A stretch of DNA of 64,000 nucleotides from Nitrospirales bacterium (GTDB taxonomy: Bacteria > Nitrospirota > Nitrospiria > Nitrospirales > UBA8639), in assembly GCA_963555755.3 (NCBI GenBank), contig OY820905.2, positions 2,976,001-3,040,000 on the forward strand, written 5' to 3'. Both the position numbers and the translations under genes were made by a program. Shown here piece by piece: positions 12,456 to 19,012 of this stretch (its first letter is position 1; each line of letters starts with the position of its first letter). The notes beneath the pieces were generated by a model. It did no database searches. It saw only the letters and a program-made list of their open reading frames with translations, and was not told the DNA's origin.

Positions 12456-12618
12456 ATTAATTCGGTTTTTATCATCGATGGGTAATCTGAAGTCCGCCCG
12501 CCTGCTTCCATTCTGAATGCCTGTGACCTGCCCAACACTAGATTTGACAATACATCAATGAACCGAATAAATTAGTATACGGGAAAATCAGCTTTTTTAT
12601 TTTGCGCAGGGTAAACAA

Positions 12619-12753
12619 ATGACTGGAAAAGTCATCTTTGTACTTGTGATCGGCCTCATGGCCATCGTGGTCAGTGTTTTGGCGTGTACGGGCTGGATTT
12701 ATGGATTTGCCTGGTGGCGCCGCAGAGAATACTTTAACGATACTTCCTCATAA
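12619..12753 (+). CDS. Putative 44-aa single-pass membrane microprotein
   Basis: MTGKVIFVLVIGLMAIVVSVLACTGWIYGFAWWRRREYFNDTSS; TTGACA at 12544 with TAAATT 18 bp later. Confidence 0.55.
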   Translation: MTGKVIFVLVIGLMAIVVSVLACTGWIYGFAWWRRREYFNDTSS

Positions 12754-13118
12754 CCTCATTTCTCTCCCCTCTTTGCATCTCTAAAGTCCAACAGTCAAAA
12801 CTTAGAATGTCGGCTGGCCTGTATTAAACGGCGGTAGAAGTCATAGCTCCTAAACACGGTTTAACTTCTTTGCCGTTTTCCCCTTAACCATTCTTTTGCA
12901 TTGAAGACAGGGGAAGTAAGGCAAGGCAGTCAACGATTTAAAAATCCCCCCATTGGGGGACCACCTTTGGACTTCCAGGAAAGGACCCACTTCCAGCTCT
13001 GAATCTATCAAGATCACATTCTATAACACTTGAAAATAGCGATTCCCCTTTGTTGAAGAGGATATTATGGCACTATTTCGCCCTTAATCATTCTTAGTCT
13101 AATCCTGATCGGTAGAGA

Positions 13119-13163
13119 TTTCAGAACCGGGCGTTAGGGGTTCAAGTCCCTCCGGACGCGCCA
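13119..13163 (+). other. tRNA-Arg-like 3' half, att-site remnant T2
   Basis: ttcagaaccgggcgttAGGGG-TTCAAGT-CCCTCcggacgcgCCA; about 100 bp downstream shared with T3. Confidence 0.8.
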
Positions 13164-13298
13164 GTTTTTCTTTCCAAATCGAAATTCCAATAAAAAAGTT
13201 TAGTCTGCCATCATTTTTGGAACAGGCGGCATGAAAAAAATCCCACCAATCTGAATGTGGTGCCCCAAATCTGACCCTATACACATTATTAAATAGGA

Positions 13299-13481
13299 TT
13301 GTCCCCTTTAAAAGTAAAAAACTTCTTGACCTGTAATAAGTGCGGCGCTGAGGGCGTGCCGATTGGCAAGACCAAGAACGGCATGCAAACAACTTTTTGT
13401 TCATCCTGCAAAACCCGCGTCTTTTTCTCTGAACAAGCCTTTCTCATGGCCGAAAAGCGGTGTTTGATCTATACCCAATAA
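13299..13481 (+). CDS. Possible small zinc-ribbon protein
   Basis: CNKC...CSSC in 60 aa; TTG start, convergent with the YjzC gene. Confidence 0.4.
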   Translation: MSPLKVKNFLTCNKCGAEGVPIGKTKNGMQTTFCSSCKTRVFFSEQAFLMAEKRCLIYTQ

Positions 13482-13543
13482 TATTAGTAGTGTGAATATC
13501 ACTTAATTTGGTGAGGGCCTTTCGGCTAGCCCCACAAATTTTC

Positions 13544-13732
13544 CTATCGCCCTGATTTGTTCTTTGTTGGATCCACCAGAGTATAAGTGGAGCCTGGTGT
13601 TGGCGTAGGAGGGAGAGGTTCCCCTTTTACAGAAGTGACCTCATGCCCGTGGCCACCTCTTGGACCAATTTGTTGATATTGTCCCGACTTTGGGGCTGTT
13701 TGCCCTGGCTTTAGTCCACGTAATTTTCCCAT
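13544..13732 (-). CDS. YjzC-like small protein
   Basis: KPGQTAPKSGQY...GPRGG...VT..KGEPLPPT pattern; AAGGAG RBS. Confidence 0.8.
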   Translation of the reverse strand: MGKLRGLKPGQTAPKSGQYQQIGPRGGHGHEVTSVKGEPLPPTPTPGSTYTLVDPTKNKSGR

Positions 13733-13799
13733 TTTTCATCTCCTTTCAGATAGATAATTTAACCATGTTTTGCCAGAAAGCCTGCAGTTGAGCCAATAA

Positions 13800-14255
13800 T
13801 TAGGCTGCACCTTCGATCTCTTCAATATCCTGCGTGAAATCAAATACAATCCTAATGGGTTCCCCCTCGTTTTTGTTTTGGTTGTAGCTGTTTAGATCTG
13901 ACTTCAACTGTCCGCAGTCTCCTACTATTTGCTGCCTCCTTTGCTGAAAGGCAATTTTCATATGTTGTGGTGAAGCTGTGCGAATATCAGCCCAAAATGT
14001 TGTCTGCTTGCCTTGGCTCAAAATCCTAGCAGCGTGTTTGGCTCGCACAGTTCTTCCTTGGGGATCAACTATGTAATCTTCACGCATGGCTTTGGAAATT
14101 TGATCAGCGCATTGGTTAATGACTGTGCTCGGATGAGGCTCCCAAAGATCGTTCCGTATAGCCCATGCTGCTATGGCACGACTCGTTGCGGGCCAGGGCT
14201 GCTTGGCCTTAACGTATTTAGAAACAATTTCTTGCATTTGTTTTGTGTAAGTCAT
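13800..14255 (-). CDS. Hypothetical protein (151 aa) in higBA operon
   Basis: GGAGG RBS, 15 bp after the higA-ImmA stop; no recognised domain. Confidence 0.8.
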   Translation of the reverse strand: MTYTKQMQEIVSKYVKAKQPWPATSRAIAAWAIRNDLWEPHPSTVINQCADQISKAMREDYIVDPQGRTVRAKHAARILSQGKQTTFWADIRTASPQHMKIAFQQRRQQIVGDCGQLKSDLNSYNQNKNEGEPIRIVFDFTQDIEEIEGAA

Positions 14256-14270
14256 AACTATTTAGCCTCC

Positions 14271-15413
14271 CTAAAGACCTGATGGGACAGTACCCCATCC
14301 ATCCGTCAAAGCCGCAGATGTGATGATCTCTTTTATTTTTACCAACAAAGGCCTATTTTGAGACCAAAGAATTTCTTTTCTGTGCTGAAGTTGACCTACC
14401 GCAATGCCAGGATGGATATTATTGTTATTGGCAAACCTTGTGATATTTATTTTGGAATACAGGGGGCTTACCCTGGTTATAAAATTCTCCAATTTGTCTT
14501 GAGGGATTAAGTTTCCTACAGCAAACTTATCCGCCGCCTTCTCTGCAGGCGGCTTATCCGCTAGTGCCGCTGCATCCTTCCCTATCAGATCCGTGTCTAA
14601 TGTCTCGTAGCTATTGTTCAATCCATCACGATTCTTTATGTGCCCTAATTCATGAAAGAGTGTATGCCAAAACGAATCAATTCGATCGTACCTAAGTGAT
14701 AGGACGATAACGGGAGAATGAGGGTTAAGCCAAAAACATGCTCCATCAATTCGTGTTTTGGGAATGGCCTCAACCGTCAAAAATCGAATACCACATTCAG
14801 CAAGGATTTGTGGAACGAGTCTAATCTCTTGTGGTGCATGAAGAAGTTGTTGGAGCTTAAAAATAGCCAATTTAAAGTTGGCCTCATTAAATTTGTTTGC
14901 AGTAACCGCCTTAGATAGGTGTCTTGCACGATATAGCCAAGCTAGTTGAGATGGTGTAGGCTTTTTATATGCCAAGGAGGTTCTTGCAGCGAATGCCCAA
15001 AACCGTATCTCTTGGTCAAGAGTTTTTATTTCTAAGAAGTCCATGACCCTGCTTTCTAAGACCTCAATATTTGTTGACGATTCAATCCAGCCACGCCGAA
15101 TCATTTCCTTCACAGGAGCCTTTTCATATAGTTTGGCCCGTCGAGTCACCGACTCATCAGACTTCTTTATCCTTGACAACTGAAACGCGTTTTCTAGATT
15201 CAACCAAAGTTCTGGTGAGGTGCCGAAAGCGTCAGCCAACCCTTTTGCAGTTTCAGGAGTAACTGATCGCTTCCCAGAAATAATTTCGTTGATGCGGTTG
15301 AGAGGACGACCAAGGATGTCGGCTAAATCGCCTTGGGTCCATCCTCTTTCCTCAAGTTCTTCCCGTATAAATTCTCCCGGAGGGAAAACCTCTACTGAAG
15401 TCCGATTAGACAT
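14271..15413 (-). CDS. higA: HigA-type HTH antitoxin fused to ImmA/IrrE Zn-metallopeptidase
   Basis: PPGEFIREEL, INEIISGKRSVT, WLNLE; C-terminal FWHTLFHELGH...EKAADKFA. Confidence 0.9.
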   Translation of the reverse strand: MSNRTSVEVFPPGEFIREELEERGWTQGDLADILGRPLNRINEIISGKRSVTPETAKGLADAFGTSPELWLNLENAFQLSRIKKSDESVTRRAKLYEKAPVKEMIRRGWIESSTNIEVLESRVMDFLEIKTLDQEIRFWAFAARTSLAYKKPTPSQLAWLYRARHLSKAVTANKFNEANFKLAIFKLQQLLHAPQEIRLVPQILAECGIRFLTVEAIPKTRIDGACFWLNPHSPVIVLSLRYDRIDSFWHTLFHELGHIKNRDGLNNSYETLDTDLIGKDAAALADKPPAEKAADKFAVGNLIPQDKLENFITRVSPLYSKINITRFANNNNIHPGIAVGQLQHRKEILWSQNRPLLVKIKEIITSAALTDGWGTVPSGL

Positions 15414-15427
15414 TGTTATCCTCCGAT

Positions 15428-15724
15428 TTAGTGATAATCTTCAATTGATACTATAATGACAGTCTTTGTGTTTCTTTCCTTTTTGAATTCAAGAATCAAC
15501 CTATATTGGTCATTTAAGCGCATAGAATATTGTGACTTTCTTGCTCCCTTTAACTTTTCGAAATGCAGTGACTTCATTTGGCGAAAATCCCTTTCGTCAA
15601 CAGCATTACGAATAAATTGCATTCGTTTCCAAAATACTCTAACCGCCGCTTGCGGCAATGTTGTAGGGGCCCGTGGATCCGTTTCGAGCCTATCCATGGC
15701 ATCGTCCTGAAATTCAACCTCCAT
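15428..15724 (-). CDS. higB: HigB (RelE/ParE family) toxin
   Basis: LHFEKLKG...YSMRLNDQYRLI...IEDYH; upstream of the antitoxin. Confidence 0.9.
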   Translation of the reverse strand: MEVEFQDDAMDRLETDPRAPTTLPQAAVRVFWKRMQFIRNAVDERDFRQMKSLHFEKLKGARKSQYSMRLNDQYRLILEFKKERNTKTVIIVSIEDYH

Positions 15725-15732
15725 ATTTCTAA

Positions 15733-15785
15733 ATACTACTCCTGTTTTAATTGTATGTCAATATATAATTTTACACTAAATGTAA
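15733..15785 (-). promoter_or_regulatory. Sigma70 promoter of higB plus palindromic operator
   Basis: TTGACA (15756-15761)-17 bp-TAGTAT (15733-15738), 8 nt from the ATG; TTACA-N5-TGTAA at 15771-15785. Confidence 0.7.
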
Positions 15786-15901
15786 TACTGTAAATTTTAA
15801 ATTATAGTAATCCGCAACTCTAAATGGACGTCATAAACAAACACTGACCAAAACAACGATCACGGATTGTCACTATGCAGTTTGGCGGGGGGGGGGGGGG
15901 G

Positions 15902-18479
15902 CAATGGCATTCGGTTTGGTTCGAACGAACAATCTGCCTTCTCTGTTATCAGCGGAACTGGTTGATTGATCAGGGCTTCTGAACCGAAGTCGCCCTGGTG
16001 TCCTTTTTCGCTTGACTTCTTTTCCGTCTTCTGAGAGACTATCCTCGATGAAGACTGTGGACACCTTACCCAAGACGACCTTTAGCGGGCGGCGGTTCAC
16101 CCGCAAGCAGTTGGCGCAGGTCCAAGAAACCGTCCAGCTGTTCCCCCACCTGAGTCGGAAGGAATTGGCCCTCACCGTCTGTGAGCATCTCAGCTGGACC
16201 ACGCCGACGGGCCACAACAAGATTCATTCCTGTTTGACCTTGCTGACCGAGCTGGAAGCGCACGGGATCGTGACTCTGCCGGCCACGCGCCACAAGCGCG
16301 CGCCGGGACACCCCATCCCTGCGTTTCACGAGCCGCCCCCCACCGAGCCACTCACCGACACCCTCGCCGCCGTGGCCCCAATTACCCTGCACCGGGTGGT
16401 CTCGAAAGAGGAACGCGAGAGCTGGAAAGCCTACCTGCAGACCTATCATTATTTGGGCTATAAACACCCGATCGGGGCCCAGCTGGGCTATCTGGTGAGA
16501 TCGGCCGCCCAGCCGTACCCGCTGGGCTGTCTGCTGTTTTCGGCCTCGGCCGCCTGGGCGCTGGCCCCCAGAGATCACTGGATTGGCTGGGACGTGACGC
16601 ACCGGAGGAAGCTCCTGCCATTGGTGTTGCGCAATGATCGGTTTTTGATCTTTCCGTGGATTGACGTGCCGAATCTCGCCAGCCATGTGCTGGCGCGGGC
16701 CACCAAGCAGATCGGGGACGACTGGGTTGAAGTCTACGGTTATCGCCCGGTGCTGATTGAAACGTTCATCGATCCCTCCCGGTTTGCCGGGACCTGTTAT
16801 CGAGCGGCCAATTGGCACTTCGTGGGCTACACCGAGGGGCGCGGGCGGTTTGGCTCAACGTCGGACCGTCCACCCACGACAAAAGAGATTTTTCTCTATC
16901 CGCTCCAACCCGACTGGCGCGCGTGCCTGACTGCCGGGCATCGAGCCGTCACGGTGAAGACACGCTATCGCAACGACGTGCGAGCCAGTCGCACACGGTC
17001 CGTCGGGGAAGGGTTTGTCGCCTGGTGGAAACAGGTGGTCCACATCCTCCACGACGTGGCGGCCCAGTACGATGACCAGTGGCGCGTCCGGAAACGGGTG
17101 ATCGATTCCCTGATCCTGATGCTGTTGATCTTTCGGTTGGTGTCGTCAACCAACTCCCAAAGTTACGGCACCACCATTGATGACTTGTGGGACAGTTGCG
17201 ACAACCTGGCGCTCGCGCTCCCGCAACCCCACAGCATCGCGCCGGCGTCCTTTTGTGTCGCACGTCGCAAACTGGACGAAGCCATTTTCCAGTCCGTCAA
17301 CCGGAACATTCTGGACGCCTATGCCCCACACGACTCCAACGACACCTGGTTGGGCCATCGGGTGTTTGCCGTCGATGGCTCCAAGCTTACACTGCCCCGC
17401 GCGTTGCGGGCGTGTGGCTACCCCTTGCCCTCTGACAATGCACACTATCCTCAAGGGTTGCTGAGTTGCCTCTACCACCTCACGTCGCAAGTGCCCTGGG
17501 ATTTCGACCTCGTCGCGCATGGCAACGAGCGACGGTGCGCCCTGCGGCACCTGGCTGTGCTGAAGCCCAACGATGTCGTGGTGTACGATCGAGGCTATTT
17601 CTCCTACGTCCTGCTGCATCAGCACTGGACCGCCGGGATCCACGCCGTGTTTCGTCTCCAAGACAGCGGGTTCAAGGAGATTCAAGAGTTTTTTGCCGGC
17701 CCGGACACCGACACCACGGTCACCCTCTTCCCCGCCGCACGCACGCAACGAGACATCCGGGCGGTCTATCCTGATCTCGCCATCATCCCGTTGAGCCTGC
17801 GGCTTCTGAAATATGAGATGGCCGGCAGCCGATTTTGCTTGGGCACCACCCTGGTCGGCCCCCAGCAGCGGTATCCGCTCCAGGAGTTCATGGATCTCTA
17901 CCATGCCCGTTGGGGCATCGAGGAACTCTACAAGGTGAGCAAGCGCCTGTTCCTCATCGAGGAGTTTCATGCCAAAACCGAGCGCGGCGTCAAACAAGAG
18001 CTCTTCGCGCATTTCGTCCTGATCACCATGAACCGGCTGTTCGCCAATCGGGCGGACCACGCACTCAATCCCGAAGCCCCCGCAGCTGAGCCCATGGCCC
18101 CTCCCGGATCGTCCATAGTTGGAACCGGCACCGGGGCGAGGCGGACATTCAAGACCAACTTCAAACATTGCCTTCACGTGTTTGCGCGAAGCTTCGAAGA
18201 TCTGCTCGTGCTCCATGCTCGGATGCAGACCGCCGTCCAACGGGCCTTCGAGTCCATTGTGAGTCACTACCAACGGGTGAGGCCGGGCCGATCCTATCCT
18301 CGAACATCCATGAAACCGGAGTCCACGTGGCATCCACCCAAAAAGAACAGCCAGTCCAAGAACCCCACAGGGTCGATGGCCTCTATCTGAAAGTCCCTTA
18401 AGCACATGGAATCCGTTTCTTAAACGAATGAGCCAAATCCTTAAACGAATGCCGCCCATTCCTTAAACGAATGCCATTG
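15902..18479 (+). mobile_element. IS4-family IS inserted in a poly-G tract
   Basis: IRs CAATGGCATTCG / CGAATGCCATTG; G15 on the left and G16 on the right; three CTTAAACGAATG repeats at the right end. Confidence 0.9.
16048..18390 (+). CDS. DUF4338-fused IS4 DDE transposase
   Basis: IETFIDP..FAGTCYRAANW; AVDGS, YDRGY, YHARWGIEELYK (YREK motif). Confidence 0.9.
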   Translation: MKTVDTLPKTTFSGRRFTRKQLAQVQETVQLFPHLSRKELALTVCEHLSWTTPTGHNKIHSCLTLLTELEAHGIVTLPATRHKRAPGHPIPAFHEPPPTEPLTDTLAAVAPITLHRVVSKEERESWKAYLQTYHYLGYKHPIGAQLGYLVRSAAQPYPLGCLLFSASAAWALAPRDHWIGWDVTHRRKLLPLVLRNDRFLIFPWIDVPNLASHVLARATKQIGDDWVEVYGYRPVLIETFIDPSRFAGTCYRAANWHFVGYTEGRGRFGSTSDRPPTTKEIFLYPLQPDWRACLTAGHRAVTVKTRYRNDVRASRTRSVGEGFVAWWKQVVHILHDVAAQYDDQWRVRKRVIDSLILMLLIFRLVSSTNSQSYGTTIDDLWDSCDNLALALPQPHSIAPASFCVARRKLDEAIFQSVNRNILDAYAPHDSNDTWLGHRVFAVDGSKLTLPRALRACGYPLPSDNAHYPQGLLSCLYHLTSQVPWDFDLVAHGNERRCALRHLAVLKPNDVVVYDRGYFSYVLLHQHWTAGIHAVFRLQDSGFKEIQEFFAGPDTDTTVTLFPAARTQRDIRAVYPDLAIIPLSLRLLKYEMAGSRFCLGTTLVGPQQRYPLQEFMDLYHARWGIEELYKVSKRLFLIEEFHAKTERGVKQELFAHFVLITMNRLFANRADHALNPEAPAAEPMAPPGSSIVGTGTGARRTFKTNFKHCLHVFARSFEDLLVLHARMQTAVQRAFESIVSHYQRVRPGRSYPRTSMKPESTWHPPKKNSQSKNPTGSMASI

Positions 18480-18731: not shown

Positions 18732-18776
18732 CTTCGGAACCAAGGGTTGGGAGTTCGAGTCTCTCCATGCGCGCCA
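18732..18776 (+). other. tRNA-Arg(TCG) 3' half, att-site remnant T3
   Basis: cttcggaaccaagggttGGGAG-TTCGAGT-CTCTCcatgcgcgCCA. Confidence 0.85.
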
Positions 18777-19012
18777 GTTTTTCTTTCCAAATCGAAATTC
18801 CAATTAAAGAGTTTGTTCTGACATCATTCTGGGAACAGACGGCATGACCAAATCACACCAATTTGAACCTAGAAACAGTAGTTGAATGTGGTACTCCAAG
18901 ACCTGCTCGGATTTCCCACTACAAGCAACCTCCCAAGTGAATTCACCGCAGCTGTTTCACGACTTCCTTACCACTTGATTAACCGATAGTTTTAAGTCAG
19001 TCTCTTGTCGCT

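Follow-up and report, generated by a model that had tools for sequence, protein, structure and literature searches.

The window analysed here, 64,000 nucleotides of contig OY820905.2 (positions 2,976,001 to 3,040,000) from a Nitrospirales bacterium, carries on its minus strand four genes in a row (Table 1): higB, coding for a HigB-like toxin; higA-M78, whose product joins a HigA-type helix-turn-helix (HTH) domain to an ImmA/IrrE-family zinc peptidase; p151, coding for a protein of 151 aa; and yjzC, a small YjzC-like gene. An earlier note on this DNA had taken them for a four-gene defence module, which raises the question of how many of these genes belong together and what they might do. The four open reading frames (ORFs) are co-oriented and separated by 14, 15, and 67 nt (from higB to yjzC), a purine-rich ribosome-binding site precedes each of them, and the GC content of the stretch is 0.43 vs. 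0.51 for the genome, in agreement with the tight, AT-rich operon described earlier. Comparison with related loci shows that the conserved unit has three genes (higB, higA-peptidase, and p151), not four. Judged from sequence, this widespread module probably represents a so far undescribed relative of PD-lambda-2, an anti-phage system. An anti-phage role in some form appears fairly probable. The more specific reading that we favor, and hold tentatively, is a mobile, self-repressing, protease-gated toxin-antitoxin (TA) system of the PD-lambda-2 kind, with p151 as predicted sensor or co-activator; the protease-gated TA or anti-phage role suggested by the earlier note is thus still graded as the best reading, with conservation in its support.

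The linkage of p151 to the peptidase gene carries most of this argument. The search for p151 gave 630 close relatives among 636 candidates and about 1,320 clusters at 50% identity, and the named host genomes include Planctomycetota, Acidobacteriota, Chloroflexota, Nitrospirota, and Proteobacteria. From these, 80 of the 259 genome loci and all 41 viral loci were fetched (121 p151 loci). A HigA-M78 gene was found directly upstream of p151 in 119 of them, and the other two loci have just 131 and 84 nt of upstream sequence. In the host's own family the peptidase gene precedes p151 in all seven further p151 loci. As p151 occurs in only 8 of the 115 genomes of this family, the module is patchy and mobile. 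At the same time, no YjzC match was detected in any of the 121 loci. Thus, of the four-gene module proposed earlier, the co-oriented arrangement and the tight linkage of p151 to higB and higA-M78 hold, while the place of YjzC in it does not.

The reverse search used the peptidase alignment as query and covered the best 80 of 313 metagenome loci, 15 of which have less than 450 nt downstream. In the remaining 65, p151 lies 3′ of the peptidase gene in 57 (56 scripted plus L147, missed for its early start codon), and among metagenome peptidases of at least 33% identity the count is 57 of 64. For viruses, 79 loci were taken, minus five without a peptidase match and two that were too short; p151 follows the peptidase in 51 of 55 relatives of at least 33% identity and in 3 of 17 below. 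These shares are inflated, since the peptidases in the query alignment were themselves linked to p151 and the viral sets have loci in common. Relatives of HigA-M78 that have no p151 behind them (L123, L142, L149, L174, L179, L186, L189, L201, L238, and L247) make natural controls. In the distant viral relatives L269 and L280, exactly the slot of p151 is occupied by a P4 beta protein. A cultured example is Achromobacter phage CF418P1, where the peptidase gene is found together with a relative of p151 (E 3.5e-48) and a divergent HigB-like gene, placed between the integrase and lysis regions. The divergence of p151 also correlates with that of the peptidase (r 0.62, permutation maximum 0.11), as is expected from co-inheritance. 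A closer tracking of the HTH than of the peptidase part (r 0.71 vs. 0.62) was dropped as a finding, for the order reverses once a single clade is removed.

The toxin gene is the less constant member. Among 104 deduplicated peptidase-p151 pairs, a HigB-like gene is present in 84 and absent in 16 (L029 split by an insertion), and 4 loci are too short. With 16 of 100 pairs lacking HigB, HigA-M78 and p151 form the core and HigB is accessory in the family. In a quick tree the HigB-less rows fall into two well-supported groups and one lone branch. The HigB of the window keeps the conserved residues and an intact C-terminal DYH, to which we presumably can assign a catalytic role; this triplet is missing in 15 of 79 HigB-like proteins, among them those encoded next to cI in most of the prophage loci. 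The prophage copies (L099-L119, L121) have also lost other conserved residues. By analogy with PD-lambda-2A, which acts as an antitoxin, these genes may possibly represent a toxin converted to a non-catalytic partner.

Control of the operon can be read from its upstream region. The palindrome TTACA-N5-TGTAA, noticed before as a putative operator, is present in a single copy in the window (0.02 expected) and is one of three on contig C1; the other two exact sites lie at C1:1850000 and C1:2668538, and their count is about chance level. With the window counted in, 23 of 82 promoters have it at most 120 nt ahead of higB, vs. 0.0 in shuffles, and any 5-bp palindrome with a 5-nt spacer is found in 46 of 82 vs. 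11.8 in shuffles. In 43 promoters the best site is a perfect palindrome, and in 26 of these TTGAC lies a nearly equal short distance downstream of it. The HTH helix sequence differs between relatives with the arm variants TAACG, TATCG, and TGACT, as seen in small groups of related loci. In classical HigBA of P. vulgaris, HigA was reported to touch a T-G-T-A half-site (10.1101/2021.03.04.434028). The promoter proposed earlier is the top sigma-70-like site in positions 12600-16800, in a scan that gave 5 sites vs. 5.1 expected. From the sequences, we strongly infer that the HTH domain autoregulates the operon via the palindrome.

The HELGH motif of the peptidase is intact, as the earlier note had stated (aa 254-258, nt 14640-14654), and the zinc site is kept across the family: all 105 aligned relatives have H254, H258, and E291, and 103 of them have E255. 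In profile searches the HigA part matches TIGR02607 (E 1.5e-15) and the M78 part scores just below the Pfam cut-off (E 3e-4). The model of the protein is confident (predicted local distance difference test, pLDDT, 92.7), and its residues 6-98 match HigA antitoxins, the closest being HigA of P. vulgaris and others (6chv, Z 14.6, root-mean-square deviation 2.0 Å over 87 aligned residues). Against CapP (7t5t), Foldseek gave a weak match (E 7.9e-3). The PADLOC profile PD-Lambda-2_B is matched by all 105 aligned peptidases, and by the window protein at E 2.7e-45 over aa 6-347. The RmrA and capP profiles match fewer relatives and far more weakly: the best RmrA profile reaches 43 of 105 at E ≤1e-5 (top 5.9e-11) and the window protein only at 2e-4, and capP matches the latter at E 2.8e-6. 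In the PADLOC check proposed earlier the middle gene was matched, while p151 and, as component A, HigB were unmatched at E 0.1; PADLOC 2.0 holds a profile for that gene only.

The earlier note knew of no described system with this exact layout. The literature search gave no description of a p151-type third gene, which is weak evidence, an unnamed protein being hard to find by words and subscription journals being missing from the search. The closest system, PD-lambda-2 of E. coli ECOR42, had been overlooked. It consists of a HigB-like A, an Xre-peptidase B, and a P4-beta-like C; in the report on it, B is toxic and A rescues, while C is required for defence and not for neutralisation (PMC9519451). 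The gene order, a HigB-like gene, an Xre/HigA-peptidase fusion, and an accessory third gene, is the same here. The third gene, however, differs: a P4 beta protein of about 350 aa (PF14350) there, an unrelated 151-aa protein here. Moreover, PD-lambda-2A is a PF09907-type HigB, whereas the window protein is of the PF05015 type and does not match the PADLOC PD-Lambda-2_A profile at E 0.1, and the HTH of B begins near residue 60 instead of near residue 12. A mechanism paper for PD-lambda-2 was not found in the literature search.

Other relatives are more distant. TIM-B systems, which include HigB-peptidase-beta operons, were described in a preprint that proposes the beta protein to be a negative regulator and an enzyme (bioRxiv 10.64898/2026.10.19.760177). 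They share with our module an effector (HigB among them), an HTH-metallopeptidase, and a regulatory third gene, and proteolytic derepression is proposed there. They are defined, however, by the TIM-barrel beta protein, and PF14350 is matched by none of the four genes of the window module; the preprint's section on these systems mentions no p151-like partner, though its figures or supplements could list the family. With CapP, IrrE, and ImmA the peptidase shares the HExxH plus downstream Glu zinc site (for CapP as laid out in PMC13228613). In contrast to CapP/CapH, IrrE/DdrO, and ImmA/ImmR, the HTH repressor is here fused in front. The toxin-first order, the HigA fold, and the TGTA-type half-site are those of classical HigBA (P. 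vulgaris Rts1), yet the latter has two genes, a stand-alone antitoxin of about 100 aa, and an operator overlapping the -35 and -10 boxes, while the window module has a 285-aa peptidase extension, a conserved third gene, and its operator upstream of -35. Operons of RelE and a COG2856-Xre fusion were predicted by Makarova et al. in 2009 to form a three-component toxin-antitoxin circuit (PMC2701414); the pairing of a RelE-family toxin with an Xre-Zn-peptidase fusion is alike, and the text consulted names no conserved downstream third protein. The main text of PMC11980606 leaves peptidases unmentioned.

What p151 might be is the next question. Its model is locally confident (pLDDT 91.3, predicted template modelling score 0.66), with a predicted layout of three helices, a beta region at residues 61-90, a 32-residue helix, and a final helix. 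At E 0.1, p151 matched no profile in Pfam, NCBIfam, PADLOC, or PHROGs, and no consistent family emerged from Pfam for 35 distant or long relatives, from PADLOC and PHROGs for 105 members, or from PDB sequences. The top Foldseek row against PDB has E 0.83; the wide VIA search gave no Z of at least 5, with alignments limited to the C-terminal helices, and a second VIA look reached Z 3.6. The viral structure library returned one unnamed match (E 4e-3). A known fold remains conceivable, since in these searches the N-terminal part was not folded alone. Two atlas leads, DUF7225 and DUF7669, were put aside at scores under 0.8, and a HEPN-like R-x5-H was rejected, the motif lying on predicted strands. 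A single longer match (P0271) turned up in the fusion search, and its extension looks like frameshift read-through, which makes the result weak evidence for the absence of fusions. No membrane segment was found in any of the 105 members; the protein is soluble. Residues kept at 92% or above are R58, D64, G67, R71, H74, W88, R106, R107, D113, Q116, D120, N125, F140, and D143; R58, R71, H74, W88, R106, and R107 are at 92-100%. Residues 41-92 are net basic (mean +1.6) and the tail is acidic. p151 is also distinct from the P4 beta protein: it has no PF14350 match in Pfam, and its profile gives the beta proteins of L269 and L280, which match PF14350 at 1e-63, at most 0.5 bits.

Our reading of the module would then be as follows. 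The HTH domain, as a dimer, would bind the TGTA palindrome, repress the operon, and keep HigB inactive, as in classical HigBA. CapP and IrrE bind single-stranded DNA (ssDNA) between peptidase and GAF domain via Arg, Lys, Trp, and Tyr residues (PMC13228613). In the model of the window peptidase only helices and one 4-residue strand follow residue 302, past the catalytic domain, which suggests that, unlike CapP and IrrE, it has no C-terminal GAF domain; Pfam likewise gave no GAF match in it, and a Cys at the switch-loop position is rare (11 of 105). With no such ssDNA-groove domain on the peptidase, p151 may supply a nucleic-acid-sensing surface in trans, presumably by the invariant Arg, His, and Trp residues on its basic beta region. 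Upon infection the activated peptidase would cut its own HTH or linker, which would lift repression, free the HigB RNase, and halt translation. In the HigB-less versions the peptidase itself could be the output, because PD-lambda-2B is toxic. There is also a bolder proposal, which we consider rather unlikely: p151 would have a new fold and serve ImmA/IrrE-type peptidases as a separable sensor subunit, taking over in trans the part that the GAF/ssDNA module plays in CapP and IrrE. A complex prediction for HigA-M78 and p151 was uninformative (ipSAE 0.04 and 0.06, mark 0.32).

The surroundings of the module bear on this reading as well. In 20 of the 41 viral loci a cI-family repressor gene lies upstream on the same strand, directly adjacent in 13. 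The position behind a prophage cI is typical of defence genes expressed by lysogens, e.g., rexAB. We also counted defence-type genes among the nearest large ORFs of 68 genome loci (the set of 80 less 12 near-duplicates), using PADLOC at 1e-15 and a mechanical choice of ORFs. Such genes made up 19 of 120 neighbours, against 6 of 103 ORFs in the control (p 0.020); with evident cross-hits removed the counts are 16 of 120 and 3 of 103 (p 0.007). They include restriction-modification, BrxL, DrmD, Argonaute, HerA, SIR2, and caspase types. In three loci (L043:6513-8831, L039, and L083) a gene for a long prokaryotic Argonaute stands directly 3′ of p151 on the same strand, and in L043 the opposite flank of the module has a DISARM DrmD helicase. 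Two of the control stretches from the host's own genome, L290:261-1343 (C1 near 100261) and L304:4309-5568, include a match to a phospholipase effector of the CBASS type as well as a CARF-HEPN protein with an RtcR-like regulator next to it.

Several points weigh against the favored reading. The viral loci are redundant, and the adjacency to cI shrinks to about 7 of 104 after deduplication. The defence control is a set of 103 evenly spaced ORFs from one genome, that of the window, and many nearest neighbours are housekeeping genes. Since p151 has no fold or family match, its predicted sensor role rests on its slot, its residue pattern, and analogy. As the beta protein is proposed in the TIM-B preprint to be a negative regulator and an enzyme, a shared slot need not mean that p151 activates. 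Defence, toxicity, proteolysis, and nucleic-acid binding are all predictions here. Finally, about one quarter of the modules lie within IS1-like elements, a location just as compatible with a regulator of mobility, and the linkage is asymmetric: p151 is never seen without the peptidase, but the peptidase lacks p151 in 7 of 64 close metagenome relatives, the pattern expected if p151 were a toxin.

That last point leads to the strongest alternative, which we regard as possible, if clearly less probable: a double-toxin module resembling RosmerTA, in which p151 would be a new soluble toxin checked by the peptidase through cleavage or binding, and HigB an optional second toxin held by the HTH half. 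The suggestion of the earlier note that p151 may be a second effector or a substrate is likewise possible. In RosmerTA the HTH-peptidase RmrA is paired with diverse toxins without known similarity (PMC10440598), and the HigB-less form found in 16 of 100 pairs, an HTH plus ImmA-type zinc peptidase gene followed by a small gene, has the rmrA-rmrT layout. The constancy of the upstream peptidase (119 of 119 informative loci, 7 of 7 in the host's family) agrees with this, the many invariant polar residues of p151 could form an active site, and one RmrA profile weakly matches 43 of the 105 peptidases. However, the window peptidase is far closer to PD-Lambda-2_B than to RmrA (2.7e-45 vs. 2e-4), a HigB gene usually stands in front, p151 is without the membrane segment of the Kita RmrT, and no known toxin fold was found for it. 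RmrT profiles matched none of the 105 p151 sequences at E 0.01, a negative which, RmrT toxins being diverse, leaves room for p151 as a new RmrT.

A second alternative, in our view unlikely and placed slightly behind the double-toxin one, is a DNA-damage or stress switch of a mobile element, like ImmA/ImmR. From one operator shared by both, the HTH would repress the operon and a divergent transposase gene, proteolysis would derepress them, p151 would be a co-regulator or substrate, and HigB would serve addiction. An IS1-like transposase gene is indeed divergent just upstream in 26 of the 104 deduplicated loci (84 of which have at least 1.2 kb upstream), and a small basic gene, convergent downstream, closes the element in 31 of 104 (94 with enough sequence). 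The combination of a divergent transposase and a convergent small gene makes the module the cargo of a transporter-type element. As the profiles for both were built from the same loci, the counts are partly circular. In the HigB-less L178, L200, L233, and L235 the transposase gene is directly divergent from the peptidase gene. The characterised relatives ImmA, IrrE, and CapP cleave HTH repressors, and the top Foldseek rows for p151 include winged-helix regulators, non-significant at E about 1. On the other hand, most modules have no adjacent transposase, the defence neighbours are enriched, the location behind prophage cI is that of lysogen-expressed defence genes, and the closest tested relative, PD-lambda-2, is anti-phage.

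The IS1-like transporter element is worth describing in its own right (L010, L021, L047, L057, L081, L120, L178, L200, L233, L235, and others): a divergent transposase, the cargo, and a convergent basic protein of 80-100 aa with the motif G-x-x-GG-x-KGG-x-AR and without a Pfam match (L078:6471-6740, L057:2902-3171). In IS1-like copies the operator of the module sits between back-to-back promoters.

A four-gene system, with YjzC as a needed accessory or sensor and the Cys-rich, Zn-ribbon-like ORF as a possible fifth part, is very improbable: yjzC is co-oriented, follows p151 at 67 nt, and stands between a strong ribosome-binding site and a hairpin, and the post-p151 slot holds a distant YjzC-like gene in L152 and other small basic genes in L010, L021, and L024, but YjzC is absent from the 121 p151 loci, its 11 viral loci are without p151 or peptidase, and the Zn-ribbon ORF lacks a homologue. 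The role of YjzC had been made to depend on conservation of its neighbourhood, and it falls with the outcome of that check. The 11 viral YjzC relatives (55-79% identity) are found either within phage modules for head and packaging functions or close to methylases. The YjzC-like gene 3′ of p151 in L152 (Pfam E 0.0026, below cut-off) is the single one in 90 deduplicated loci. YjzC is a real gene but a passenger, dispensable to the module; titles and abstracts in the literature search gave nothing on its function. The convergent Zn-ribbon ORF, mentioned as possible by the earlier note, has sub-threshold profile matches only. A search of proteins 33-105 aa long gave no homologue and the 121 p151 loci no match to it, so it may not be a gene.

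If the bolder proposal on p151 is true, peptidase and p151 would constitute an undescribed two-protein switch that has spread over many phyla and into prophages and transporter elements of the IS1-like type, and that acts either on a HigB RNase, for abortive infection, or directly on a transposase promoter. Since the prediction of 2009 it has been a question how the Xre-peptidase fusions of toxin operons become active. In the p151 family the 350-aa beta enzyme is swapped for a small, soluble, confidently modelled protein, and HigB is found intact, decayed, or absent. The small third protein and the natural HigB variants thus offer a compact test bed for assigning toxin, sensor, and substrate. 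A candidate defence family would also be added to those in PADLOC 2.0, which covers the middle gene alone.

Table 1. Features of the module and its islet in the window (strand "." for the palindrome as annotated).
Feature	Position	Strand	Description
higB	15428-15724	-	98 aa; HigB-like RelE-fold toxin gene; PF05015 E 1.6e-10
higA-M78	14271-15413	-	380 aa; HigA-type HTH fused to ImmA/IrrE (M78) zinc peptidase
p151	13800-14255	-	151-aa soluble protein without known family, 3′ of peptidase gene
yjzC	13544-13732	-	small YjzC-like gene; PF14168 E 2.4e-5; real gene, passenger
Cys-rich 60-codon ORF (Zn-ribbon-like)	13299-13481	+	unsupported as gene or module part
Palindrome TTACA-N5-TGTAA	15771-15785	.	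probable HigA binding site, 9 nt upstream of -35 box
Sigma-70-like promoter TTGACA-17-TAGTAT	15761-15733	-	10 of 12 positions
Predicted hairpin 3′ of yjzC	13503-13540	-	possible transcript end; terminator scan made no call there
Degenerate tRNA-Arg 3′ fragment, att-like repeat	13120-13182	+	islet left boundary
Second tRNA-Arg 3′ fragment, att-like repeat	18733-18795	+	islet right boundary
Multi-copy insertion sequence (DruA-like + DDE transposase)	15902-18479	+	inserted upstream of promoter; unrelated to module

The local setting of the module is that of an islet between two degenerate tRNA-Arg fragments, filled by the module and a 2.6-kb insertion sequence (Table 1). The islet ORF list contains no integrase gene. 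Downstream of a tRNA-Arg gene at C1:2961327 there are three segments in tandem, of which the islet with the module is the third. Each segment behind this tRNA-Arg(TCG) gene (sites C1:2961327-2961402 and 2971085-2971154, and 13120-13182 and 18733-18795 of the window) is closed by a degenerate tRNA 3′ fragment, and the fragments share one 26-nt core, making up a stacked integration hotspot; an integrase was not evident among the ORFs listed for the three segments, for which no profile search was made. The hairpin after yjzC has a predicted energy of -17.1 kcal/mol over a 75-nt stretch (without shuffle control). RNA runs gave patchy contigs at depth 2-8, which are possibly DNA.

The insertion sequence codes for a 792-aa ORF with a DruA-like domain (PF14236) and a DDE transposase, has short inverted ends and G-rich targets, and is present in 10 further near-identical chromosomal copies. 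The element as a whole is a transposon rather than a Druantia system. Small, mutually unrelated basic genes (44-70 aa) with good ribosome-binding sites occupy the slot after p151 in L010:6498-6638, L021:6501-6635, L024:6520-6732, and L152:2132-2299, and possibly form, like yjzC of the window, a class of roaming small passengers.

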